From a virus: 31,024 nt of DNA. The stretch lies in the IMG/VR virus record IMGVR_UViG_3300012983_000022; one strand, written 5' to 3'. Under the pieces are notes generated by a model that worked only from the letters and a program-made list of their open reading frames with translations, did not search any database and was not told the origin of the DNA. Position 1 is the stretch's first letter; each line of letters opens with the position of its first letter. The position numbers and the translations under genes were made by a program. Positions 121 to 31,024 of this stretch are shown here, one piece after another.

Positions 121-450
121 GGGAAAACGAAATTTGTGCATAGATTGGTAGCAGAAGCATTCATACCAAACCCAAACAATTTTCAGCAAGTCAATCATAA
201 AGACGAAAACAAATTAAACAATGAAGTACCAAATCTTGAATGGTGCGATGCCAAATATAATTCAAATTATGGAGAAAGAAATAAAAAAATACTTGAACAA
301 AGAATAAAAATAGGTTATGTAAACACAGAAAATGTTGGTCTTTCAAAAGAAGAATACCGTAAAAAATATAGTAACGAATATAGAAAAAAGAACATTGAAA
401 AACTTAGGAAATATGACAGAGAATACAAAAAACGAAAAAGGTCGAATTAA
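1..450 (+). CDS. HNH/NUMOD4 homing endonuclease, remainder of the wrap-around gene. It appears 5'-partial only because the circle was linearised here.
   Basis: Frame 1 is open from base 1 to the stop at 448-450. It contains AEAFIPNPNNFQQVNHKDENKLNNEVPNLEWCDAKYNSNYG, an HNH_3-type motif. The 136 GTG start in the ORF track is an artefact of the window edge. Confidence 0.85.
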   Translation, partial: RFVSSKLGSYRKINGKTIKPRNKENIDGNYLTVNLKRNGIGKTKFVHRLVAEAFIPNPNNFQQVNHKDENKLNNEVPNLEWCDAKYNSNYGERNKKILEQRIKIGYVNTENVGLSKEEYRKKYSNEYRKKNIEKLRKYDREYKKRKRSN

Positions 451-652
451 AATTAGAATACATAGGCCAATATGGGGAACTCCCATCACATTTTTGGATA
501 AGTATTGCCCTACTCAATTTGAAATAGTGGGTATGGCAGAAGATAATGGACACGGATTTAGCGGTGCTGCAAATTGGGATGGATTAAATGCACATTGTGT
601 AATTAATGGCAAAAATATGTTTAAGAGAATTTTTATCAAGAAAGTTTCCTAA
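413..652 (+). CDS. EcoRI-methylase-like N6-adenine MTase, C-terminal fragment, copy 2 (C2).
   Basis: Encodes MTENTKNEKGRIKIRIHRPIWGTPITFLDKYCPTQFEIVG...GKNMFKRIFIKKVS, matching the family's C-terminal GVPITFLDKY..QFEI..G...RI.IKK pattern. ATG at 413 follows AGGAA. The upstream part of track ORF 332-652 overlaps the HNH gene. Confidence 0.7.
   Translation: MTENTKNEKGRIKIRIHRPIWGTPITFLDKYCPTQFEIVGMAEDNGHGFSGAANWDGLNAHCVINGKNMFKRIFIKKVS
449..526 (+). repeat. 78-bp near-identical direct repeat (76/78, with a 63-bp perfect core at 464-526). Its partner is 30178-30255.
   Basis: Aligned by eye: aaaattaga[a/g]taca[t/c]aggccaatatggggaactcccatcacatttttggataagtattgccctactcaatttgaaata. Confidence 0.9.
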
Positions 653-1115
653 TTAATATCCTTGCGTATGGAACAATAGGATGGTCGTTTTCATCAACCA
701 TATACAAGTCTCCATCTACTTGACCTCTTTTTTGCACCTCTTTTCTATATTGCTTGTGATGAGGCTTATAAGGTCTTACACCGATTTCCAAGCCCAAATT
801 GGCAATCCCTAAGCCCACTATCATAAATTGTTTACCGCTTAAAAAAATAGGATTTTTTTCCAAACATTCAACATAAAAGTCACTTTTCGGAGTGGCTTTT
901 TTTGTATAAGCACAATGAATCAATCCATCTTCCCAGAGATAACTCAATATAGTTATTGGCACTCCAATCACACCGTCATAGTCTATTGGTATGTCAACGG
1001 CTCTGTCAACATTTATTGCATCATAGTTGTCATAGTGGTCGTAATGGTGGTCTTTAATTGAATATCCTTTCAATACCAAATGCATTCTTTCTTTTGGCTC
1101 ATAGTCTGCTATCAT
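636..1115 (-). CDS. 5'-truncated EcoRI-methylase-like MTase fragment (end of the middle module plus the C-terminal module, unsplit). Possibly a relic.
   Basis: Contains YDNYDAINVDRAVDIPIDYDGVIGVPITILSY...PYARILIRKLS. It lacks the NPPF catalytic part and the FLIIGN segment. No clear promoter lies upstream. Confidence 0.6.
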   Translation of the reverse strand: MIADYEPKERMHLVLKGYSIKDHHYDHYDNYDAINVDRAVDIPIDYDGVIGVPITILSYLWEDGLIHCAYTKKATPKSDFYVECLEKNPIFLSGKQFMIVGLGIANLGLEIGVRPYKPHHKQYRKEVQKRGQVDGDLYMVDENDHPIVPYARILIRKLS

Positions 1116-1181
1116 ATTTAATTTATTTTTTAAATAAATATATTGTACATTAAAAAAAAATGTAATTTTTTTCTTTTTTTA

Positions 1182-1210
1182 TTGATTTTTTTGAATTATA
1201 ATACTATTTA
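1182..1210 (+). promoter_or_regulatory. Class-1 phage promoter: TTGATT, 17 nt, TATTTA, within the consensus tttttATTGAyTTTTT..gaTACTATTTATATA.
   Basis: Near-identical copies lie at 1591, 27968 and 29333 on the plus strand and at 27774-27801 on the minus strand. Confidence 0.65.
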
Positions 1211-1229
1211 TATATAAAGAATTAAAATT

Positions 1230-3188: not shown

Positions 3189-3644
3189 ATGAAAAAATAT
3201 TTATTAATTATAATATTATCAATAATATCAAATTTTTCTTTTAGTCAAATAATTACACAAAATTATAAAATACAAGCAAAACAAGAAAATGTTATAATAC
3301 GCCAATATGATGTAGTTGAAGGACTTGGAAATACAACAAAAGAAATTCTTGCAAGTATTGCAAAGATAGATTATGAAACCTATTATGAATTGGTAAATTG
3401 TATAGAATATTGCAGAGACAATTTTTCAGAAATTGAAAATATGAATAATGAAAATGAAATAATAACACATAGCAAAAAAATATGGGCTTTTCATAAAAAA
3501 ATAAACGATAAAACAAAAATTCAAATTGTATTATATGATTCAGATTATTATGAAAGCATCTTAAATACACATCACATAATTATGATTTTTGATTTATATT
3601 ATGCTGAAGATTTTGATACAATTTTAAATTCAATAAAATTATAA
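3189..3644 (+). CDS. Secreted hypothetical protein with an N-terminal signal peptide.
   Basis: MKKYLLIIILSIISNFSFSQ is a hydrophobic leader with an SFSQ-type end. Confidence 0.6.
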   Translation: MKKYLLIIILSIISNFSFSQIITQNYKIQAKQENVIIRQYDVVEGLGNTTKEILASIAKIDYETYYELVNCIEYCRDNFSEIENMNNENEIITHSKKIWAFHKKINDKTKIQIVLYDSDYYESILNTHHIIMIFDLYYAEDFDTILNSIKL

Positions 3645-3656
3645 AAATAGATAATT

Positions 3657-4799
3657 ATGAAGAGAATATTATATATACCAAGCACAATGAATGGAGGAGT
3701 TTATTATTATAGGGTTTATACTCCAATGAAATCACTTGTTGAAATGTACCCAAATGAATTTGATATTACAATCAATAATACATATAAATTCACCGACCAA
3801 GAAAAAGATGAAATAGGAAAAAACTTTGATATTGTTATTGTTCACCAAGCATTATATAATCCTGAAATACAGGACGCATTTTGGAACACTATTATATATT
3901 GTAAGAAAACATATGGAACAAGATTTGTACTTGACATTGACGACTATTGGGATTATGGAAAAACTCACCCATATAATAATGTTTGTCAATTTTTTGCATA
4001 TCCTTTAAAGATGATGATGAATTTTAAATTATTTGATTATGTTACAACTACTACAGAATATTTCAAGTCTGTAATTTCAGAATATTTTCCTGAAGAAAGA
4101 ATAGTTGTTTTTGAAAATGCAATTTCATTGGAAGACACACAATTTGTTAAAGAAAAAAACAAATCTGATAAATTAAGATTTGGAATCACTGGCGGCTCTT
4201 CTCATACTGAAGATATTAAACAGTTGCTTGAAATACCAAAATATCTCACAGACAAACAATTAAATCAAATAGAATTGGTATTTTGTGGATATAATGCTGA
4301 AGATGCTGAAGTATGTGAAATTGATGACAATGGAAATATATCCAAAAAAGAAAAAATGGACATCAAAAATAATTGGTGGTACACTACAGAAAACCAATTT
4401 AAAAGTTCATTTAAAAACTATAAAAGAATAGAAACAAGGTCAATTGATAATAAAGAATATGGCAGCATTTATAGAAATATTGATATTTTGATGGTTCCAT
4501 TATTAAACAATAAATTCAATAGATGTAAATCGGAATTAAAATTTATAGAAGCTGGTTTCACAAATACAGCCGTTATATCTTCAAATGTAATACCATACAA
4601 TAATTTTGGTGAAAATGAATATGATTGCTTATTTGTAAAAGAAAACACGCCTGAATCTTGGGCCAAAACAATAAAGAAAATTTTAAGAGATAAGGACTAT
4701 GTAAAAATTATGGCTGAAAGATTAAATTCAAAAGTTACTGAAACACGAAACCTTGAAGACATAACAAATAAAAGAGCAGAATTTTTCAAAAATATTTAA
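3657..4799 (+). CDS. Putative GT-B fold glycosyltransferase.
   Basis: The two-domain layout and C-terminal half (DILMVPLL..NRCKSELKFIEAGFTNTAVISSNV..Y) resemble the GT1/GT4 nucleotide-sugar binding half. By-eye call only. Confidence 0.45.
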   Translation: MKRILYIPSTMNGGVYYYRVYTPMKSLVEMYPNEFDITINNTYKFTDQEKDEIGKNFDIVIVHQALYNPEIQDAFWNTIIYCKKTYGTRFVLDIDDYWDYGKTHPYNNVCQFFAYPLKMMMNFKLFDYVTTTTEYFKSVISEYFPEERIVVFENAISLEDTQFVKEKNKSDKLRFGITGGSSHTEDIKQLLEIPKYLTDKQLNQIELVFCGYNAEDAEVCEIDDNGNISKKEKMDIKNNWWYTTENQFKSSFKNYKRIETRSIDNKEYGSIYRNIDILMVPLLNNKFNRCKSELKFIEAGFTNTAVISSNVIPYNNFGENEYDCLFVKENTPESWAKTIKKILRDKDYVKIMAERLNSKVTETRNLEDITNKRAEFFKNI

Positions 4800-4808
4800 T
4801 TTTTTTAA

Positions 4809-4837
4809 TTGATAATTTTAATTAAAATTTGTATATT
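4809..4837 (+). promoter_or_regulatory. Class-2 promoter: TTGATA, 17 nt, TATATT.
   Basis: Shares the 14-mer aaaatttgtatatt with the 27828-27856 promoter. Confidence 0.55.
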
Positions 4838-4843
4838 ATAATA

Positions 4844-4969
4844 GAAACGCAGTAAGTTTCGGCCCACCATAGTCGGCTGTGTTTTATCATTAGGTTTTAA
4901 AATACCAACAAAAATTCTCTATCGTTATTAAACGAAAAAAGCGCCTCTATTCCCAAGGTGCTTTTTTTT
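4844..4969 (+). ncRNA. Candidate small RNA unit of about 125 nt (sRNA-2) with its own promoter and terminator.
   Basis: No ATG-initiated ORF. 5' hairpin gaaac-gcagtaa-gtttc (4844-4860). Terminator at 4940-4969. Confidence 0.4.
4935..4969. terminator. Bidirectional rho-independent terminator between sRNA-2 (+) and tRNA-Pro (-).
   Basis: agcgcc (4940-4945) pairs with ggtgct (4957-4962). An A-run precedes the stem and a T8 run overlaps and follows its 3' arm. Confidence 0.65.
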
Positions 4970-4973
4970 ATTG

Positions 4974-5046
4974 TCTAAATAAAAGGATTTGAACCTTTAT
5001 CTCAGGTTCCCAAAACCAGTATTCTACCTGATTGAACTATATTTAG
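4974..5046 (-). tRNA. tRNA-Pro (anticodon UGG), 73 nt, no encoded CCA.
   Basis: Hand-folded cloverleaf: acceptor ctaaata/tatttag, D arm gttc-aatcaggta-gaat, anticodon arm ctggt-tttggga-acctg (U33, G37, one U-U mismatch), T arm aaagg-ttcaaat-ccttt. Confidence 0.8.
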
Positions 5047-5820: not shown

Positions 5821-5893
5821 TTGCGGGTGTAAGATTCGGACTTACGATTTCAAGTTTATGAGACTTGCGTGTTAACCACTGCACTAACCCGCA
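5821..5893 (-). tRNA. tRNA with CAU anticodon (elongator Met or lysidine-dependent Ile2), 73 nt.
   Basis: Acceptor tgcgggt/acccgca, anticodon arm caagt-ctcataa-acttg, T arm gtaag-tccgaat-cttac. The T-loop has C at position 55. Confidence 0.8.
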
Positions 5894-5925: not shown

Positions 5926-8900
5926 TTAGTTTATAGTTTTTATTCTTCTTGATACACAACCGTAAGTTCCTCTTACAATTATCTTAGTGTATATGTTTGT
6001 ATCCCAAGAACCGTTTTCAGTTAATGTAAATACTGTCTGTGAAGTTGCAGAATCACTGTCCACCTTATATATGTAAGTTTGACCAGCTCTATTAGAAGAA
6101 TTTGAAGGATATTCAGAACCTTCTGTGAAACACATACCAGTTGAACGCTCTTGTCTAATAAGATAAGGTGTTGCATTTTCTGAAAAATTGCTCCAAGAAC
6201 ATTTTATTGAAGAACCATCAAGTGAAGCATTAAATGTATAATTTACAAATTCAAAGTGACTGAAACCTGAATAAGTATTTTCATTTGAATTATAAAGTCT
6301 TGCTTTATATCGACCAGCTCCTAATACACTTCCATCCATTTTATCAGAATCAGTAAGGTCAAATATAATCCAATCTTCTTTATCATAAGCGTCTTCAGGA
6401 TATAATGTATCTGAAGGGAATGTTTCAACGGCTGAGATACCTATATTTTTTACAGGTGTTGTCATTTCGGTATCATCCTCATAATATATTTGCAAGTAAT
6501 TGTACTTATTAACACCTCTGTGTATGTTAAGATATGCTCTGTAGTCATTCAAACTATCTGAAGAATCCCCTATTTGGAATGTAACATATTCTCCACGGAA
6601 AGTAGTAATATCAGGGTCAATTTGAATATTTGACTTGAATCTCCAATTGTTTATAGTGAAATAATCATTGTCATCATAGTAATCATCTAAGTTAGCATTT
6701 TCCCAATCATTATATCTCAAGATTCCAAATGCTTCATTGTTTTGAATATATCTATTGTATCTTTTTTGAAATTCATCCCTTGTGTAAGCTCTTGAGTTTG
6801 TGAAAGGTCTTGCTTGCTCAGTTATTACTATAAGTTGTGTTACTCCATTATAGTCTTTATAAATATCTGATACGGCTACACAGTGTCCTGGTTGCCATAT
6901 AAAGTCCATAGGTTGTAAAGCATCAATCATTTCATCCCATTGTTCTTGTGTTATAGTATCTGCATAATATTTTTCATAAAGAACTTGAAGATTTGGTATT
7001 CTTGGTCCTGTGTTACTTGCGTTACGCCTCATATAATCTCCTGAAACATAAATATTATCCTGTCCCATAAGATAACCTGTAAGACCTGTGCAAACTGTTC
7101 CATAGAAAGAAGCACAATAGTGTGAATTAAGTCCACGATAAGTATATCCATATTTTGATACTTTTGTTCCTATTGTACTATTATTTACAATTGAAGAATT
7201 TATTCTTTCTGTGTACATAACAGAACGCTTATTCTGAATTGCGGTTACAAGCGTTTTAAGAGATATGTTCTGTCCTACATATTGGTTGTATTCGCAAGTT
7301 TCACTATAAAGAGTTCCTATTTCATACCATCCTTCTCTATATCTTGTATTCCAAAATTGACCTTCACCATCATTTGAAGTCATAGGAATTGATTTTCCTG
7401 TATTGCTCCAATTATTGAACTTATCAATAAATTGGTCATATCTTGCTATTTCAGATATATTTGTAATCTTATAAAGTCTTCTCTTATATGCTTCATAAGG
7501 CTTGTCAGTAGGAATTACTTTAGTTAAGTCAGAATTATCCAAGTATGTAAAGAACTTAATTACGCTATCATACTTTGTTATAGGTTTTGATTCGGCTGAT
7601 TCGTTTGCTACACCTATAGTAAGTCTAAGCATATAGCCTGGATATGGTTGAGCTAATGAATAGAAAGTATAAGTGCTATTATATTTGTCGAAGAAGAATG
7701 GATTTACTACTTTTCCGTTTGTGTTGTAAAGAACACCTTTTATTATTTGGAAATCATCATTGACTTTAATAGTGAATCCTTTTGACAAATCAATGTATGA
7801 AGTTGTCCAATATATTTCGTTAGATGAAAGATTAGTAAGTTCTCCGTTTTCACCAAGTTTTCCAGGTGTTAAACTTATTCCTTGCAAAGGTAGAATAGGA
7901 AGTTGAAGAGGTTTAAGAGAGTTCTTAACTAATTTTATAGTAGGATAGTTAGCATAACCTGTATTTGTACTACGATATGCAACGAAACAAGCGTTTGATG
8001 GAAACTTATAGTTGTTGTAGTAATATGGAGGATTATTTACTTGGTCAATGCAGTTTCCGTCTCTGTCAAAAACAAAGTAAAATCCTGGATAAGCTGTCGT
8101 ACTGAATCCATAGAACTCCATAGAATCATATCCTTCAACATAGAAAAGTTTATAGAAGTGGCCTGAACCTGTTCCAAAATATGAAGTCAACAAGTCATCT
8201 ACTGTGTACTTACCTAAGTTGCCATATCTTCCGTTTACAGCAGGTGAATCATTAATTTTTACACCTCCAAAAACAGGAGCATCTTTACTGAACATATTAG
8301 AAGCAATATTTGAAGCTGAAGGTATGGAAGAATAAAAAGTTTCTTCATTCTGAGAAACAAAATTGCTCTTTGGAATGAATGCTACATTTACCAAATAACT
8401 GCTATCCGCCCAATAAGGCATTATCAAATACTTAGCTGTCTTAGGAATTATGTTTCCAGTCCAGTAACCTCCGTTATTCAAGTTATTGGTTATGCAAGCA
8501 ACAACTATGTCATTCTCATCGACTAAGCAAGCAAGTGGTGCCGAAGAAGCAGAAGTGCTTGAGCCATAAATCTGTACCGAGCACATAACATATTTTTCAG
8601 AATCCACAGGTATTCTGTAAGTACGGTGACTGTTGTTGGTTCCACTTTCTAGCAATGTATTCCAGTTCTTTCCTATTGCGTATCTCTTGAAAAGACCTAT
8701 ATAAGCATCACTTGTGTGGTCGCTCCCTTGAGTTGAACTATATTTACAAACAGGGAACTTGTTAGAAACTTCTTCAGTCATTCTAACAATATCCTTTTTA
8801 TAATATATTAATATCTGAGGATTGATTTTATCCTCAAGAATCTTTGATTCTGTTATGTCATCCAAGAAATACACCAAAGTCTGTCCTGCGTCAAAACGAG

Positions 8901-25862: not shown

Positions 25863-26148
25863 TTAAAAAACTTTTAATTTTATTTTGTATTTCCTTAATT
25901 CGTAGATATATAGTCGTTGGAGAAACTTTAAATAGTTTTGCACAATCCCTTGAATTTCCTATTTCAGCATATTCAAGTATTATTCGTCTATCGGTTTCAT
26001 CAAGTTTGGTATATATTATCTTTTTCAATTTTCTTATTTTTTCCTCATCCTCATCGAATATCGAATCATTTGGTTTATATTCATCAAGAATTTGGTATAT
26101 GTTCATTTCCGCTTCTTCGTATCGTTCTTTAATATTCTTACTATTCAT
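25846..26148 (-). CDS. Sigma-70 region-4-like HTH protein (C-terminal half of a split sigma-factor-like gene).
   Basis: LDETDRRIILEYAEIGNSRDCAKLFKVSPTTIYLRIKEIQNKIKSFL. The Met at 26148 overlaps the HNH stop (ATGAATAG). Confidence 0.6.
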   Translation of the reverse strand: MNSKNIKERYEEAEMNIYQILDEYKPNDSIFDEDEEKIRKLKKIIYTKLDETDRRIILEYAEIGNSRDCAKLFKVSPTTIYLRIKEIQNKIKSFLNDDNN

Positions 26149-26719
26149 AATATTTATTATTACTAAATTTCCATAAATACCCACCTGCTTGTTTTCTTTC
26201 ATTTTTACATACTTTTAATATGTTTGAATGTTGTACACCTGTAGCCTTTTGAGCCTCTATTGGCGAAATAAAATAATTAATAAATTTGCCATTCAATGTA
26301 TATTGTTCAACAGGTATTTGGCATCCTCTTGAATTATTTTTATTTTTAGTTTCTTGTATTTTATTTCTTGTGTTTCCATAAAGTGCATTGTATGATTTAT
26401 CACACCATTCCAAATTATCTACCCTATTGTTTAGTTTGTTTTCGTCTTTATGGTTAACACAGGGCAAATTATCAGGATTTGGTATGAATGCTTCAGCAAC
26501 TAAAATATTTATTCTTTTTGATTCATAAATACCATTTTTACAAAGTCTAAAATAATAATATCCAGAACCACAAATTTTTGGTGTTTCAATTTTACCTTTT
26601 AATTTAATTTTTCTTCCGTTTTTATCAATTATTATTCTATTAACGCTTCTGATTTTGCCAAAATTACTTATTTCATAATAGCCTTCATATCCTTTAATAA
26701 TTTTCCAAATTTCAATCAT
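26141..26719 (-). CDS. HNH/NUMOD4 homing endonuclease, paralog of the wrap-around HNH gene.
   Basis: WKIIKGYEGYYEISNFGKIRSV, AEAFIPNPDNLPCVNHKDENKLNNRVDNLEWCDKSYNALYG, and a C-terminal DNA-binding-like segment EAQKATGVQHSNILKVCK. Confidence 0.9.
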   Translation of the reverse strand: MIEIWKIIKGYEGYYEISNFGKIRSVNRIIIDKNGRKIKLKGKIETPKICGSGYYYFRLCKNGIYESKRINILVAEAFIPNPDNLPCVNHKDENKLNNRVDNLEWCDKSYNALYGNTRNKIQETKNKNNSRGCQIPVEQYTLNGKFINYFISPIEAQKATGVQHSNILKVCKNERKQAGGYLWKFSNNKYYE

Positions 26720-27862: not shown

Positions 27863-27959
27863 AAAGAAATTAATAAGTCGCACCACATTTGACAAAACAA
27901 TATAAATCCTTTTTCTGAAACGGTAGTGGTGCATCGGAGTAAGTTAAAGGATTTTTTTT
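27863..27959 (+). ncRNA. Candidate small RNA of about 95 nt (sRNA-1) with interleaved helices and a U-run.
   Basis: Helix A is 27880-27886 / 27926-27932 (gcaccac/gtggtgc). Helix B is 27905-27912 / 27946-27953 (aatccttt/aaaggatt), followed by T6. No credible ORF. Confidence 0.4.
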
Positions 27960-27967
27960 ACTTTTTA

Positions 27968-27996
27968 TTGATTTTTTTAATTCTTTATACTATTTA
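27968..27996 (+). promoter_or_regulatory. Class-1 promoter (TTGATT, 17 nt, TATTTA) facing the ORF-free region.
   Basis: ctttttattgatttttttaattctttatactatttatata matches the consensus used upstream of early protein-coding genes. Confidence 0.6.
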
Positions 27997-28003
27997 TATA
28001 CAA

Positions 28004-28770
28004 AAGGCAACGGTCGATATACAACTCAAATGTGGAATGTCACAATGGGTAAGACCAAAAAAAAAAATAAAGTTCTTTGATTTAAAAAACACTGACGGAC
28101 CTCTTACGGCATTTACAAGAGGTGTCACAGCGGTAACAAATCGCCAAGTACGAGAATAAAGGACCGCAGTAGAAGTCGGGTGGCAGTAGCCATCAAATAG
28201 ATGGTGAGACCTGAACACATTGTAACTCAAGCCCCGATACCGTCAAAAACAATCAGTTTTTAAAAAACTACAGCCTCACTTGATGTCTTTGGGAAAGTGA
28301 GATTTTGAATGGCAAAGTCATTCAATCTGAGAAAGCAAATAACCCACGGTAGCATAAGTTTCTGATTAAGAGTAATATTTTAAAAAAAATGTGGTCCCTC
28401 CTATAGGGATTACTGTGTCTTGTTAATAACAAGTGCTTTAGATAATAGATTAAATTAAAATCTAAATTAAAAAATAAAAAAATTGAAGATTCTTAATTAA
28501 TTTATTAACACATTTGAAAAATGTGAATGCGAAGCACAGCAAGCATAAAGAAAATAATTGAAATTTACGAATAACAAATATTACAAGTGCTTACGCAAAT
28601 TGAGATTTTTAAATTTTGTTTTTTATTATAAAATAATTAATAAAATTCTAAAATGCGTTAGCACTAATTGATAATAGCAATGTTAAATCAGTCTTGGGTA
28701 TAGTGTGCTCTGCCGAAAAAAAACAAAAGGCAAACAATCTCAACCAATCTAAGTTGGAATGTATGGGTTT
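28004..28770 (+). ncRNA. Candidate large structured ncRNA. Boundaries are approximate and the 3' end is undefined.
   Basis: No credible ORF. The GC-rich core is about 42-50% GC in the 60-nt blocks I counted at 28141-28260, against an AT-rich genome. A promoter sits at 27968-27996, and many hairpins and nested long-range helices are visible (see findings). Confidence 0.45.
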
Positions 28771-28771
28771 C

Positions 28772-29254
28772 TTATCTACGGGCCCTGAATAAAGACCAAA
28801 TAATTGAAGATACAGTGAAAACAAACCACATTAATGTTATCCAAGCCCACCAAGGATATTTTATTTTTTCTTCAACCACAGGATAAGGTTTTGGCACTTC
28901 TTTCTCAACTATTGAATCATTTGTCACTACCCTCTCAACATACTTTATTTGGTATTGTATGGCGTTCTTATTTTTCAACTCACCTCTCAATAGATGATTT
29001 GTAGTGTCTACCCAGGAATGACTAATTGAAATTGAATTTTCCAATACAAGTGTATCATATATCGGCACTATATCAACATATCTCTCAATTGGAATGTAGC
29101 AAATACTGTCCCTTGTTGTTATTGAATCCTTGTATGTCCAAATTATTTCTTCTTTTTGGATTATTGTCGGCGGCTGCGTTTTGCAACCAACAAAAAATAA
29201 GCATAGAGCCAAAATCAGGCCCTGTAACAAGTTTTTAATTTTAAAATGATACAT
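28772..29254 (-). CDS. Lipoprotein with a C-terminal TMD, a unimolecular-spanin-like architecture.
   Basis: Lipobox LFFVGC in MYHFKIKNLLQGLILALCLFFVGCKTQ. C-terminal TMD YPWWAWITLMWFVFTVSSIIWSLF followed by RARR. Confidence 0.5.
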   Translation of the reverse strand: MYHFKIKNLLQGLILALCLFFVGCKTQPPTIIQKEEIIWTYKDSITTRDSICYIPIERYVDIVPIYDTLVLENSISISHSWVDTTNHLLRGELKNKNAIQYQIKYVERVVTNDSIVEKEVPKPYPVVEEKIKYPWWAWITLMWFVFTVSSIIWSLFRARR

Positions 29255-29332
29255 AATTCAACTTTTGTTTAAAGTGCCTTAAAACGGCTTATTTCAAGTC
29301 TAAATATATTTGTAATTATTTTATGTTTTTTA

Positions 29333-29361
29333 TTGACTTTTTCAACTTTAGGTACTATTTA
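29333..29361 (+). promoter_or_regulatory. Class-1 promoter: TTGACT, 17 nt, TATTTA.
   Basis: ttttttattgactttttcaactttaggtactatttatt. Confidence 0.6.
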
Positions 29362-29392
29362 TTATTAAATAATTATAATTAAAATTTAAATT

Positions 29393-29794
29393 ATGAACAA
29401 AAACCTAAATCAAGCTAAAAGAGCTAAAAATGACGAATTTTATACGCAACTTGAAGACATAGAAAAGGAACTTGCTTGTTATGATGTTGAAAATTTCAAA
29501 GGACAAGTGATATATTGTCCTTGTGACGATTACAGATTGTCTAATTTTGTTAAATGCTTCAAGAACAATTTTGAATATCTTGGATTAAAGAAACTTATAG
29601 CCACCAACTATGATATTGGTGACGGTGCTTGGAAATATGAATATGACGGTGAAAATGAAACAATTACCAAACTTGAAGGTAATGGTGACTTTATGTCTGA
29701 TGAATGTACAAAAATAAAGGAAGAATGTGATATGGTTATAACGAATCCACCATTCTCATTGTTCAGAAAATTTGTAAAGTGGCTGTATGACTAA
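29393..29794 (+). CDS. EcoRI-methylase-like N6-adenine MTase, N-terminal catalytic fragment (N).
   Basis: NDEFYTQLEDIEKEL...VIYCPCDD...MVITNPPFSLFRKF carries motif IV (NPPF). It stops at 29792-29794, overlapping the next ATG (ATGACTAA). Confidence 0.85.
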   Translation: MNKNLNQAKRAKNDEFYTQLEDIEKELACYDVENFKGQVIYCPCDDYRLSNFVKCFKNNFEYLGLKKLIATNYDIGDGAWKYEYDGENETITKLEGNGDFMSDECTKIKEECDMVITNPPFSLFRKFVKWLYD

Positions 29795-30170
29795 GTTTTT
29801 GATTATCGGAAACCAAAATGCTATTACCTACAAGGAAATCTTTCCTTACATCAAAAACAACGAACTTTGGTTGGGAATGAATTGGGTTAAGGAGTTTATC
29901 CAACCTAACGGAGAAATTAAGAAATTTGGAAACATTTGTTGGTTTACCAATGTAGAAAACAAAAAGAGAAACCAACCTTTGGACTTATACCGCAAGTATA
30001 ATCCAAATGACTACAAAATCTATGACAATTATTGCGCAATAAATGTTGACAAGGTGGCTGAAATTCCAGAAGACGATTACATTGACATTGAAATTGATGA
30101 AGAAGACTATCCTAAATGGAAAGCCGCTTATGGCAATGATGTTGAATTAATTGAAGATGAAGAAAAATAA
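29787..30170 (+). CDS. MTase middle fragment, copy 1 (M1).
   Basis: MTKFLIIGNQNAITYKEIFPYIKNNELWLG...WFTN...YDNYCAINVDKVAEIPEDDY continues the family's sequence directly after the N fragment. It ends in an acidic tail. Confidence 0.8.
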   Translation: MTKFLIIGNQNAITYKEIFPYIKNNELWLGMNWVKEFIQPNGEIKKFGNICWFTNVENKKRNQPLDLYRKYNPNDYKIYDNYCAINVDKVAEIPEDDYIDIEIDEEDYPKWKAAYGNDVELIEDEEK

Positions 30171-30360
30171 TAAAAAGAAAATTAGAGTACACAGGCCAAT
30201 ATGGGGAACTCCCATCACATTTTTGGATAAGTATTGCCCTACTCAATTTGAAATACTCGGAATTGCCAATAGCGCAAGATGGATTGGTGATTTTCCGTGT
30301 TATACAATAATTAATGGGGAAAAAATATACAATAGAATTTTAATTAAAAAGATTAAATAA
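30157..30360 (+). CDS. MTase C-terminal fragment, copy 1 (C1).
   Basis: MKKNNKKKIRVHRPIWGTPITFLDKYCPTQFEILG...GEKIYNRILIKKIK. ATG at 30157 (the track starts at TTG 30151). Overlaps M1 by 14 nt in the +1 frame. Confidence 0.75.
   Translation: MKKNNKKKIRVHRPIWGTPITFLDKYCPTQFEILGIANSARWIGDFPCYTIINGEKIYNRILIKKIK
30178..30255 (+). repeat. Partner of the 78-bp near-identical repeat at 449-526.
   Basis: 76/78 identical, with a 63-bp perfect core at 30193-30255. Confidence 0.9.
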
Positions 30361-30368
30361 AACAACTT

Positions 30369-30794
30369 ATGGACTACAATAAGAAGTTTTTGATTTTGGG
30401 CAATAACAATGCAATCACTTATAAGGAAATTTTCCCATATATAAAAAACAATGAACTTTGGTTGGGCTTTTCCGCTAACAAGACTATGAAATTCCAACTT
30501 TCCGATTCTTACGAAAAGTGGGATGAAATGGACAAAAACGGAAAGAAATATGGCAAAGTCCCTGCAATCACTTGGTTTACAAACATTCCCCACAATAAGA
30601 GAAATCAACCTTTGGACTTATACCGAAAGTATAATCCAACTGACTATCCAAGGTACGATAACTATTTGGCTTTTAATGTTGACAAAGTGTCGGAAATCCC
30701 TGAAGATGAATACATTGATATTGAAATAGATGAATCAGAATTGGAAGATTGGATTAAAGCGTATGGCGATGATATTGAAATTTTGGAATCCTAA
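30369..30794 (+). CDS. MTase middle fragment, copy 2 (M2).
   Basis: MDYNKKFLILGNNNAITYKEIFPYIKNNELWLG...WFTN...YDNYLAFNVDKVSEIPEDEY plus an acidic tail. It has the same start and end boundaries as M1. Confidence 0.8.
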   Translation: MDYNKKFLILGNNNAITYKEIFPYIKNNELWLGFSANKTMKFQLSDSYEKWDEMDKNGKKYGKVPAITWFTNIPHNKRNQPLDLYRKYNPTDYPRYDNYLAFNVDKVSEIPEDEYIDIEIDESELEDWIKAYGDDIEILES

Positions 30795-30823
30795 ATAATT
30801 TTTGTAATTTATGGAAAAACGAT

Positions 30824-31024
30824 ATGGAAGAGATTTGGAAAGATGTTGTTGGTTATGAAGGATATTACCAAGTATCAAACAAAGGAAATGTTAGGTCGGT
30901 TGATAGATTTGTAAGCAGCAAGTTAGGTAGTTATAGAAAAATTAACGGTAAAACCATTAAACCAAGAAACAAGGAGAACATAGACGGAAATTATTTAACA
31001 GTAAATTTAAAAAGAAACGGTATA
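30824..31024 (+). CDS. HNH/NUMOD4 homing endonuclease, N-terminal part. The gene continues at 121 after the repeat.
   Basis: ATG at 30824 encodes MEEIWKDVVGYEGYYQVSNKGNVRSVDRFV..., a NUMOD4-like start that parallels MIEIWKIIKGYEGYYEISNFGKIRSV of the 26141-26719 paralog. Position 30905 is in frame with position 1. Confidence 0.85.
   Translation, partial: MEEIWKDVVGYEGYYQVSNKGNVRSVDRFVSSKLGSYRKINGKTIKPRNKENIDGNYLTVNLKRNGI
30905..31024. repeat. Second copy of the 120-bp terminal repeat (identical to 1-120).
   Basis: Direct comparison of the two window ends. Confidence 0.9.

Follow-up and report, generated by a model that had tools for sequence, protein, structure and literature searches.

The window analysed here is the whole stretch of 31,024 nucleotides (nt) of the virus record IMGVR_UViG_3300012983_000022 in IMG/VR, and it raises the question of how a phage DNA methyltransferase gene can be spread over several short open reading frames (ORFs) and whether such pieces could still make an enzyme. 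From position 29,393 onwards, three overlapping genes, called N, M1 and C1 in this work, read in order like one chain of the EcoRI_methylase family (Pfam PF13651; N6-adenine DNA methyltransferases). They are followed by a second M gene (M2), an HNH/NUMOD4 homing endonuclease gene and a second C gene (C2), and then by a third C-terminal module on the minus strand. The explanation that we favour, with modest confidence, is that this cluster encodes an anti-restriction N6-adenine DNA methyltransferase made as separately translated pieces that would reassemble non-covalently; we infer its assembly, activity and specificity from comparison with related sequences.

The pieces as parts of one methyltransferase chain

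All six pieces of the cluster exceed the curated cut-off of PF13651 (26.4 bits), with scores of 155.5 bits for N, 99.7 for M1, 31.4 for C1, 130.9 for M2, 35.2 for C2 and 59.6 for the third module. N starts at profile position 1 and matches a second stretch as well (2.9e-45), and the matches of M1, C1 and M2 occupy positions 164-275 (2.8e-28), 279-303 (1.6e-7) and 159-275 (8.8e-38), respectively. On a hidden Markov model (HMM) built from 90 single-chain homologues, N, M1 and C1 cover positions 5-144, 148-242 and 246-297 with no loss. This ordered three-piece tiling is far beyond chance. An earlier note, made from the letters of this DNA alone, had read the three consecutive ORFs as one EcoRI_methylase-family chain in that order, and both the Pfam profile, with N, M1, C1, M2 and C2 above its cut-off, and the HMM tiling agree with it. 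The overlaps that it described, of 8 nt between N and M1 and 14 nt between M1 and C1, each with a +1 step, are present in the sequence.

Regarding the completeness of the pieces, the catalytic motif ITNPPFS is present in N, and of the 29 residues found invariant across 108 homologues (18 in N and 11 in M), all are kept in N (18/18), in M1 (11/11) and in M2 (11/11). The ratio of nonsynonymous to synonymous substitution rates (dN/dS) is 0.15 between the N of the window and the split N of the related locus L001, 0.15-0.25 between M1 and its relatives, and 0.04 between M2 and its fused relative. For the C pieces it lies between 0.19 and 0.59, in alignments that take in non-homologous variable stretches. 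Close relatives were obtained only through exact-protein look-ups: the scan of IMG/VR and metagenomes with N returned no near-identical genome (best 69% and 61%), and the annotated phage genomes contained distant relatives only (<46% identity).

Recurrence of the breaks in independent samples

The exact N protein, with the ATG of M1 8 nt before its stop codon, was found on contigs of Logan SRR6060192, ENA ERZ27246388 and JGI 3300028481 (L171-L173). Moreover, a contig of 542 base pairs (bp) from ENA ERZ27246384 (L174) shows no difference from the window over the end of N, M1 and both junctions, and changes past FEI to another C variable stretch. The junction between the end of C1 and M2, together with the M2 ORF, recurs in three more contigs (L176-L178), whose M2 proteins are identical to that of the window. 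In L001 the N/M junction reads ATGATTAA, which is the same break amid other neighbouring bases.

The identical DNA in contigs from other samples means that the junctions are not sequencing frameshifts, as the earlier note had proposed on other grounds, namely that M2 and C2 are a paralogous pair with the same two boundaries. Diverged relatives do have gene breaks at both of these points, with a separate start codon at each. M2 and C2, however, are not a simple paralogous pair but belong to a C1-M2-HNH-C2 block.

The N/M break and its multiple partners

Fused relatives all read ...YVKQLMDYNKKFLIIGN across the N/M point, and the free N proteins form a group of their own that ends in ...(K/A/V)WLY(D/E). 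The 90% cluster contains twelve N-only proteins of 133-137 amino acids (aa), all of which end in ...WLY(D/E) and differ elsewhere, and more distant N-only genes (50-69% identical) end in ...KWLE, ...KWLQ or ...KWMNIE. Every N-only relative has a stop/start overlap, which is ATGA in L011, L013 and L014, with the other frame offset, and ATGAYTAA in the window and L001. That the break point stays the same while the mechanics of the junction vary speaks for a two-gene arrangement of long standing and against a recent frameshift, so that the N/M break looks old and conserved on the evidence of these relatives. In L001 the partner of N is a single M+C protein of 161 aa that lacks the insert found at other M/C junctions, and the N/M and M/C breaks are therefore independent.

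The free N genes are often accompanied by more than one possible partner. In L023 a single N is accompanied by four M+C genes in tandem, which share 43-62% identity with each other, L013 and L011 contain one N and two M+C genes each, and L093 has three complete M+C genes and one cut by the contig end, with a small HNH gene exactly between N and the next partner. These M+C paralogues keep the framework motifs and differ in two stretches, LWLG...WFTN and FEIxG...Y.RILI. At least two N-less M or M+C ORFs occur at 5 of 9 N-only loci and at 0 of the 146 fused loci counted, a set from which L176 was absent and which would give 1 of 147 with it; the Fisher P value of this association, 2e-7, overstates independence because the loci are related.

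A search of 1.84 billion cluster representatives with M1 gave 2,146 relatives. Of the best 150, about 27 have their beginning at the N/M boundary. Among them are fusions of M+C to M+C and proteins with two or three in-frame C cassettes (FEI...Y.RILIKK), the latter in tandem in P0155, P0270 and P0285. These three proteins, together with P0157 and P0150, carry tandem C cassettes, head-to-tail M+C fusions, or a tailed M joined to what is left of the N end and to one more M+C. Judging by these arrangements, duplication and exchange of the C-terminal parts evidently take many forms in this family.

L036, a phage contig of 164 kb, was considered as a further N/M split and rejected. The interruption there is an in-frame TAG at a conserved Gln (EYVA(stop)LMKYNKKF; 6350-6420, second gene copy), for which recoding of the stop codon to Gln would be a likelier explanation than a split. 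A comparable stop is found in L115 at the Trp of LWLG. In L023, a protein of 516 aa with an NPPY motif is encoded at 3419-4969, directly 5' of the array of N and four M+C genes; it is probably another adenine methyltransferase, and this phage seems to stack methyltransferases.

The M/C break, its charged tails and the homing endonuclease

The second break is located inside the IPxDY/GxxGVPITF motif, at the slash. In the window, M1 and C1 overlap by ATGAAGAAAAATAA, and the acidic tail of M1 meets a basic head on C1, MKKNNKKKIRVHRP (30157-30198, net charge about +7), which is followed by IWGTPITFLDKYCPTQFEI, a variable stretch and YNRILIKKIK. C2 is laid out in the same way, with the basic head MTENTKNEKGRIKIRIHRP, IWGTPITFLDKYCPTQFEI, its own variable stretch and FKRIFIKKVS. 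The net charge is -6 to -10 for tails and +2 to +7 for heads. This pattern is kept in L022 and L036, where the tail (EVERIVTEEELNKLNKLGFTIEILEEYENI) and the head (MKTYKIKIKNP) show no sequence relationship to their counterparts in the window and C also overlaps M by 14 nt, an architecture shared with L006.

Close relatives present this junction in three states. Single chains without insert read IPEDYDGVMGVPITFL, with tail and head absent (P0004, P0006, P0007 and P0010); other single chains (P0001, P0015 and P0026) include the same insert, about 35 aa long, in their reading frame; and many N+M proteins of 258-283 aa end at the acidic tail. The 90% cluster of M1 includes a fused N+M protein of 259 aa, and the fused N+M2 relatives have 273 aa.

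Furthermore, endonuclease genes of the HNH or GIY-YIG type are found at module boundaries in L004, L005/L006 and L007-L010. After the tail, L004 has the same HNH gene as the window and then C, L005 and L006 have a different HNH gene behind the same 5' leader and then C, and L007-L010 have a 6-nt spacer, C, a GIY-YIG gene and a second C. The HNH protein of the window matches NUMOD4 with 59.9 bits and HNH_3 with 28.8 bits, both above the cut-offs, and its gene is 100% identical in DNA to that of L004. The identity extends over a block of 659 nt (tail, HNH gene and head) with zero differences, which begins 3 nt ahead of the first tail codon and ends past the head, whereas the flanking M and C variable regions differ. 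A block without differences amid differing surroundings is what a homing element that co-converts its flanks would be expected to leave. The evidence of recent mobility is this identity to the L004 copy despite differing surroundings, and the difference in presence between the window and L176. The latter comes from a sample in which the N of the window also occurs, and its M/C1 junction is occupied by the HNH gene, whereas the window shows only the 14-nt overlap at that place. In L175, the M1/C1 junction is in frame and differs from that of the window by a 1-nt indel (A4 versus A5) and two adjacent substitutions.

Three forms of one M/C junction thus exist side by side: split, occupied by an endonuclease gene, and fused. 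From these comparisons, the M/C break behaves as a homing-endonuclease "gene in pieces", in which M1/C1 would be the endonuclease-free state of the M2/C2 junction. The HNH gene between M2 and C2, and the polymorphism of the M/C break for it, were not part of the earlier account. Concerning the origin of the tails, the shared block begins 3 nt ahead of the tail and ends past the head, which points to tails arising with the endonuclease; the in-frame inserts in distant lineages (P0175, P0231) and the common endonuclease-free splits (L007, L022, L036) point the other way.

The leader TAAATAATTTTTGTA.ATTTATGGAAAAACGATATG (L004 1920-1955, L006 1796-1832, window 30792-30826) precedes two unrelated HNH genes at the same site, one of the NUMOD4 type and the other of the HNH_3/NUMOD1 type, and one of the endonuclease genes appears to have been exchanged for the other at this site.

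A split intein was also considered for this junction and rejected. An intein-N has about 100 aa from a Cys or Ser, and an intein-C ends in His-Asn before Cys, Ser or Thr. The tail has 26-29 aa and starts with Ile, the head has 8-19 aa and ends in Arg-Pro before Ile, the catalytic Cys/Ser and His-Asn are lacking, and the insert is retained in the single chains P0001, P0015 and P0026. An insert of another kind is found in L051 (4926-7019), where a family ORF of 698 aa carries about 340 aa with LAGLIDADG-like motifs right after NPPFS. At the downstream end of the insert, Cys stands in place of the Leu of SLFREY, and the methyltransferase gene thus seems to contain an intein. Another clade (L108, L114 and L126) has a long insert at the M/C site and more C modules in overlapping frames, each after ...RYCNG.GVPITF. 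In L114 (about 1100-1850) the main ORF runs across the first C module in a different frame before it joins the second, an arrangement that may amount to a frame-dependent choice of C module in this clade.

Predicted structure of the break points

The single-chain relative P0001 was modelled with AlphaFold from an alignment of 108 sequences, with a mean predicted local distance difference test (pLDDT) score of 81. Its insert, at a pLDDT of about 90, is formed by a strand at 234-238 (YIDIE), a helix at 241-254 and strands at 255-257 (IEI) and 261-265 (KIRVH), and the M/C break falls in the turn 258-260 of the last hairpin. The N/M break lies in the loop between the helix 123-135 (SLFRDYVKQLMDY) and the strand 139-145 (KFLIIGN), and it separates the NPPF-bearing strand from the next strand of the central sheet. 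The single-sequence AlphaFold model of concatenated N+M1+C1 has a mean pLDDT of 40 and is unusable except for the tail-head segment, its best part (pLDDT 64-70), where the same four elements appear.

The single-chain prediction supports tail and head docking as strands of one small strand-helix-strand-strand unit. The suggestion of the earlier note that complementary tails hold the pieces together therefore fits the M/C junction, where the model gives one unit and the charge pattern is kept, but not the N/M junction, which is without tails. Both break points could be mapped on the predicted P0001 model, and not on a related solved structure.

Genome and layout of the methyltransferase cluster

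The two ends of the window are identical (1-120 and 30905-31024, 120 bp), as in an assembly overlap. The record is thus a complete circular (or terminally redundant) genome of 30,904 bp, and the cluster is contiguous across the window ends. The genome has the gene set of a tailed phage, with a large terminase, portal, tape-measure protein, Erf-like annealing protein and glycosyltransferase. The features of the cluster are collected in Table 1.

Table 1. Position, strand and description of the features of the methyltransferase cluster (AdoMet, S-adenosylmethionine).
Feature	Position	Strand	Description
Promoter-like bipartite motif TTATTGAC-N16-ACTATTTAT	29330-29362	+	Ends 31 nt 5' of the N start codon
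N piece	29393-29794	+	133 aa; AdoMet-binding half and catalytic NPPF motif; C-terminus ...FVKWLYD, then stop
N/M1 junction ATGACTAA	29787-29794	+	M1 start codon over N stop codon, 8 nt, +1 frame
M1 piece	29787-30170	+	127 aa; KFLIIGN...WFTN...YDNYCAINV...IPEDDY, then acidic tail
M1 acidic tail IDIEIDEEDYPKWKAAYGNDVELIEDEEK	30081-30167	+	Net charge about -9
C1 piece	30157-30360	+	67 aa from ATG 30157; alternative upstream start TTG 30151
M2 piece	30369-30794	+	141 aa; variable region unlike that of M1
M2 acidic tail IDIEIDESELEDWIKAYGDDIEILES	30714-30791	+	
HNH homing endonuclease gene, 5' part (NUMOD4)	30824-31024	+	Resumes at position 121
HNH homing endonuclease gene, 3' part (HNH_3)	121-450	+	Whole protein 176 aa
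C2 piece	413-652	+	79 aa; PF13651 positions 279-344, 1.1e-8
Third C-terminal module	636-1115	-	159 aa; PF13651 positions 242-344, 4.4e-16

The start codon of M2 is the conserved internal Met of the family (...VKQLMDYNKKF...), and the in-frame codons upstream still encode I-K-Q-L. A spacer of 29 nt separates M2 from the HNH gene, whose final 38 nt overlap the start of C2. The third module, which is convergent with C2 and overlaps it by 17 nt, comprises everything past the WFTN motif, that is, the last third of the family profile, without N or the front part of M. Its IPxDYxGxxGVPIT motif, IPIDYDGVIGVPITIL, is uninterrupted, and its variable stretch is of a type found in C or M+C modules elsewhere, for example in L014. 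It is found at the same place in L001, L004, L005/L006 and L177, with dN/dS of 0.35-0.55.

The promoter-like motif, as TTATTGAY-N16-ACTATTTAT, has four exact copies on the + strand of the window (1179-1211, 1588-1620, 27965-27997 and 29330-29362), and 0.17 chance matches would be expected at the 2-mismatch setting used. All four copies are upstream of + strand units and none is located within the methyltransferase cluster. This bipartite motif is probably the early-promoter type of this phage. One copy before N and none within the cluster would fit a single operon, given that function.

The copy at 27965 also precedes an ORF-poor stretch of about 0.8 kb (27940-28780) with 81-93% DNA identity in L001, L003 and L004. 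No Rfam family matches this conserved stretch, which may be a non-coding RNA or a replication or regulatory region. Elsewhere in the genome there is a second homing-endonuclease-like gene of 192 aa (26141-26719, minus strand), for which precomputed Pfam matches on the L171 copy are NUMOD4, HNH_3 and NUMOD1, and two tRNA genes (Rfam RF00005), also on the minus strand, at 4974-5046 and 5821-5893 (65.7 and 63 bits).

Proposed explanation and alternatives

In the explanation that we favour, the half of the Rossmann fold that binds AdoMet would come from N, together with the catalytic loop that contains NPPF. M would add the other strands (KFLIIGN ... WFTN), one variable region and the beginning of the C-terminal domain, and C would complete this domain and bring the second variable stretch. 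M1 and C1 would be translated from their own ATGs, coupled to the upstream stop through the 8-nt and 14-nt overlaps, and the likely template would be a single transcript starting at the promoter-like motif at 29330. The acidic tail of M and the basic strand of C are predicted to form one small unit that would dock both pieces. N+M1+C1 is probably active as an enzyme, and M2 and C2, which are both intact, could be served by the same N. Since in relatives a single free N precedes between one and four diverged M+C genes that lack an N part, N is probably a shared catalytic half for interchangeable, presumed recognition halves, which could result in several methylation specificities.

A bolder version of this idea, which we put forward only tentatively and consider rather doubtful, is a combinatorial methyltransferase, where one N would be shared by interchangeable halves, either M+C genes or M and C pieces joined through their charged tails, each combination with its own target, so that a phage of 31 kb would cover several host restriction systems. 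Homing endonucleases would shuffle and multiply the modules, and the window could form up to four M x C combinations on one N.

Several observations weigh against a working enzyme in pieces. The N-only loci form one clade, so the association of free N with several partners does not represent independent events. Just one contig carried the exact C1 protein, and the M1/C1 state of the window could be a recent, still undecayed frameshift because L175 carries a near-identical in-frame junction. The low dN/dS of M2 may stem from its time in the fused state, and in L176 the C1-M2-HNH block stands behind a fused N+M gene of 271 aa, with no free N there. Finally, the sequence search of the PDB found no solved structure related to the family, and the best fold matches of the P0001 model (PH1948, M.BseCI, ZCCHC4 and METTL5) are weak, with template modelling (TM) scores of 0.27-0.33, and are generic class I methyltransferases only.

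The arrangement in L176 bears on the alternative that survives best, a real contender that we rate somewhat short of probable: only N+M1+C1 would work, and M2-HNH-C2 would be a functionless partial copy brought by the homing endonuclease. The KQL codons of a fused gene that remain just 5' of the M2 ATG are consistent with such an origin, and the identical M2 in the window and L176-L178 gives no sign of long retention as a solitary piece. In addition, homing endonucleases can amplify neighbouring anti-defence DNA, as an excerpt of PMC13096335 describes. However, M2 and C2 are intact, with complete invariant residues and variable regions of their own, a free N is available in this genome, and the long-diverged arrays in L023, L013, L011 and L093 indicate that extra N-less modules can persist.

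It is improbable, in our estimation, that the gene is decaying, with N/M1 and M1/C1 as inactivating frameshifts and M2, C2 and the third module as debris of endonuclease-driven recombination. The short distance to the in-frame junction of L175 and the single contig with the exact C1 protein would suit such decay, and decay does occur in the family, since L014 holds a clearly decayed remnant (MKKFLILGNPNAITYKRILIKLKKKE) and truncated or interrupted copies are found in L104, L115 and L123. Nevertheless, the invariant residues are complete in N, M1 and M2, and dN/dS between two split N genes is 0.15. Twelve diverged N-only proteins share the end residue, start codons overlap the upstream stops at the break points in frames that differ among relatives, and the 14-nt M/C overlap is kept where the sequences differ. 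The M1/C1 junction has also survived a swap of the C variable stretch (L174), and stable split relatives are abundant.

We reject, as very unlikely, a programmed +1 ribosomal frameshifting or transcriptional slippage at both junctions that would yield a single chain and leave the pieces as by-products. Both steps are indeed +1, and the fused reading (...KWLYD-KFLIIGN... and ...EDEEK-NKKKIRVHRP...) resembles the single-chain relatives, but there is no slippery or re-pairing site: GAC-TAA-G and GAU-UAA-G bar P-site re-pairing, and the A run is only 5 long. The N-only relatives with ATGA overlaps have the other frame offset, an in-frame ATG is conserved at each piece start, and frameshifting cannot join M and C in L004, L006 and L176, where a whole endonuclease gene lies between them.

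An even fainter prospect, also rejected, is that C2 and the third module work together as a shufflon, a switch in which DNA inversion would exchange the specificity regions at the C-terminus. The two are convergent with a 17-nt overlap and have different variable stretches in a common framework (GxPIT...QF.IVG...RI.IKK), but the only inverted repeat has 17 nt with 82% complementarity and is the shared QFEIVG/QFMIVG coding motif, no invertase-type recombinase was seen among the annotated genes, and the orientation is the same in all relatives examined. Weakest of all, and hardly credible, is the idea that sequencing or assembly errors in homopolymers broke a single real ORF, since the M1/C1 break does lie within an A-rich run (GAAGAAAAATAATAAAAAG) but the same junction DNA comes from separate samples and pipelines (SRR6060192, ERZ27246388, ERZ27246384 and 3300028481), and the N/M1 junction is not in a homopolymer and recurs in L001 amid different bases.

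Comparison with known systems

M.AquI and M.EcoHK31I are naturally split C5-cytosine methyltransferases encoded by two adjacent genes, with the split in or near the variable region and one partner each. As in these enzymes, the cluster would give a DNA methyltransferase from polypeptides of adjacent genes. Unlike them, it belongs to the N6-adenine EcoRI family, one of its breaks comes after motif IV, ahead of the next strand, and the other falls within the C-terminal domain, and its relatives have several alternative partners. The C5 methyltransferases of the Bacillus phages SPR, phi3T and rho11s contain several target-recognition modules in one polypeptide, and their multispecificity has been shown experimentally. 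Multiple modules are also a feature of the present family, with tandem in-frame C cassettes in P0155, P0270 and P0285, but here the modules are mostly separate genes and are known from sequence only.

The Type I HsdM and HsdS subunits, for example those of EcoKI, are encoded by overlapping, translationally coupled genes, and removal of the frameshift results in a fusion, according to an excerpt of PMC3510504. The likeness lies in a catalytic methyltransferase subunit with a separately encoded specificity subunit. However, HsdM has a complete catalytic domain and HsdS is a separate recognition protein, whereas the cut described here would go through the catalytic Rossmann fold, so that N alone would not be a complete enzyme. 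The "fractured genes", with split inteins that flank a homing endonuclease gene (Dassa et al. 2009, PMC2677866, in excerpt), present the same layout of gene half, endonuclease gene and gene half. The tail and head of the present cluster are far shorter than intein halves, and the insert stays in the mature single chains.

The precedent for the M/C break is the nrdA gene of phage Aeh1, which is split by the free-standing HNH gene mobE, and whose products carry oppositely charged tails that have arisen with the mobE insertion and are essential for activity (Crona et al. 2011, PMC3045599). Charged tails were predicted in the same work on other fragmented genes and proposed as possibly general. 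As in Aeh1 NrdA, a homing endonuclease gene marks the place where the gene of the enzyme falls into two, each translated on its own, C- and N-terminal tails of opposite charge are absent from unsplit homologues, and neither RNA nor protein splicing is involved. Unlike in Aeh1 NrdA, the charges are reversed, with an acidic upstream tail and a basic downstream head, and the tails are predicted as one folded unit and are also in frame in some single-chain relatives. These in-frame tails make an origin from endonuclease insertion tentative. The junction is also known here in occupied, endonuclease-free and re-fused forms, there is a second break without endonuclease, and the enzyme is a DNA methyltransferase.

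Charged tails on the products of a gene split by a homing endonuclease are therefore already known. In the open-access literature, no description was found of a split or endonuclease-interrupted EcoRI-family methyltransferase, nor of a catalytic half with several partners, and none of the papers found there describes a methyltransferase whose catalytic fold is itself cut and whose pieces have a choice of partners.

Implications for phage methyltransferases

This cluster would be a second documented class of endonuclease-split enzyme that uses charged tails against gene fragmentation, and the natural split, endonuclease-occupied and re-fused states of one junction offer an unusual comparison. 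One free N with up to four diverged partners points to multispecific anti-restriction methylation from a split catalytic domain. If this is true, orphan "partial" methyltransferase ORFs in phages, which are usually called pseudogenes, would need re-annotation, and their reading could help to predict phage host range against restriction systems. Moreover, the natural split points and docking tails could serve for engineered split methyltransferases, and anti-defence methyltransferases would join the genes that are diversified by homing endonucleases.

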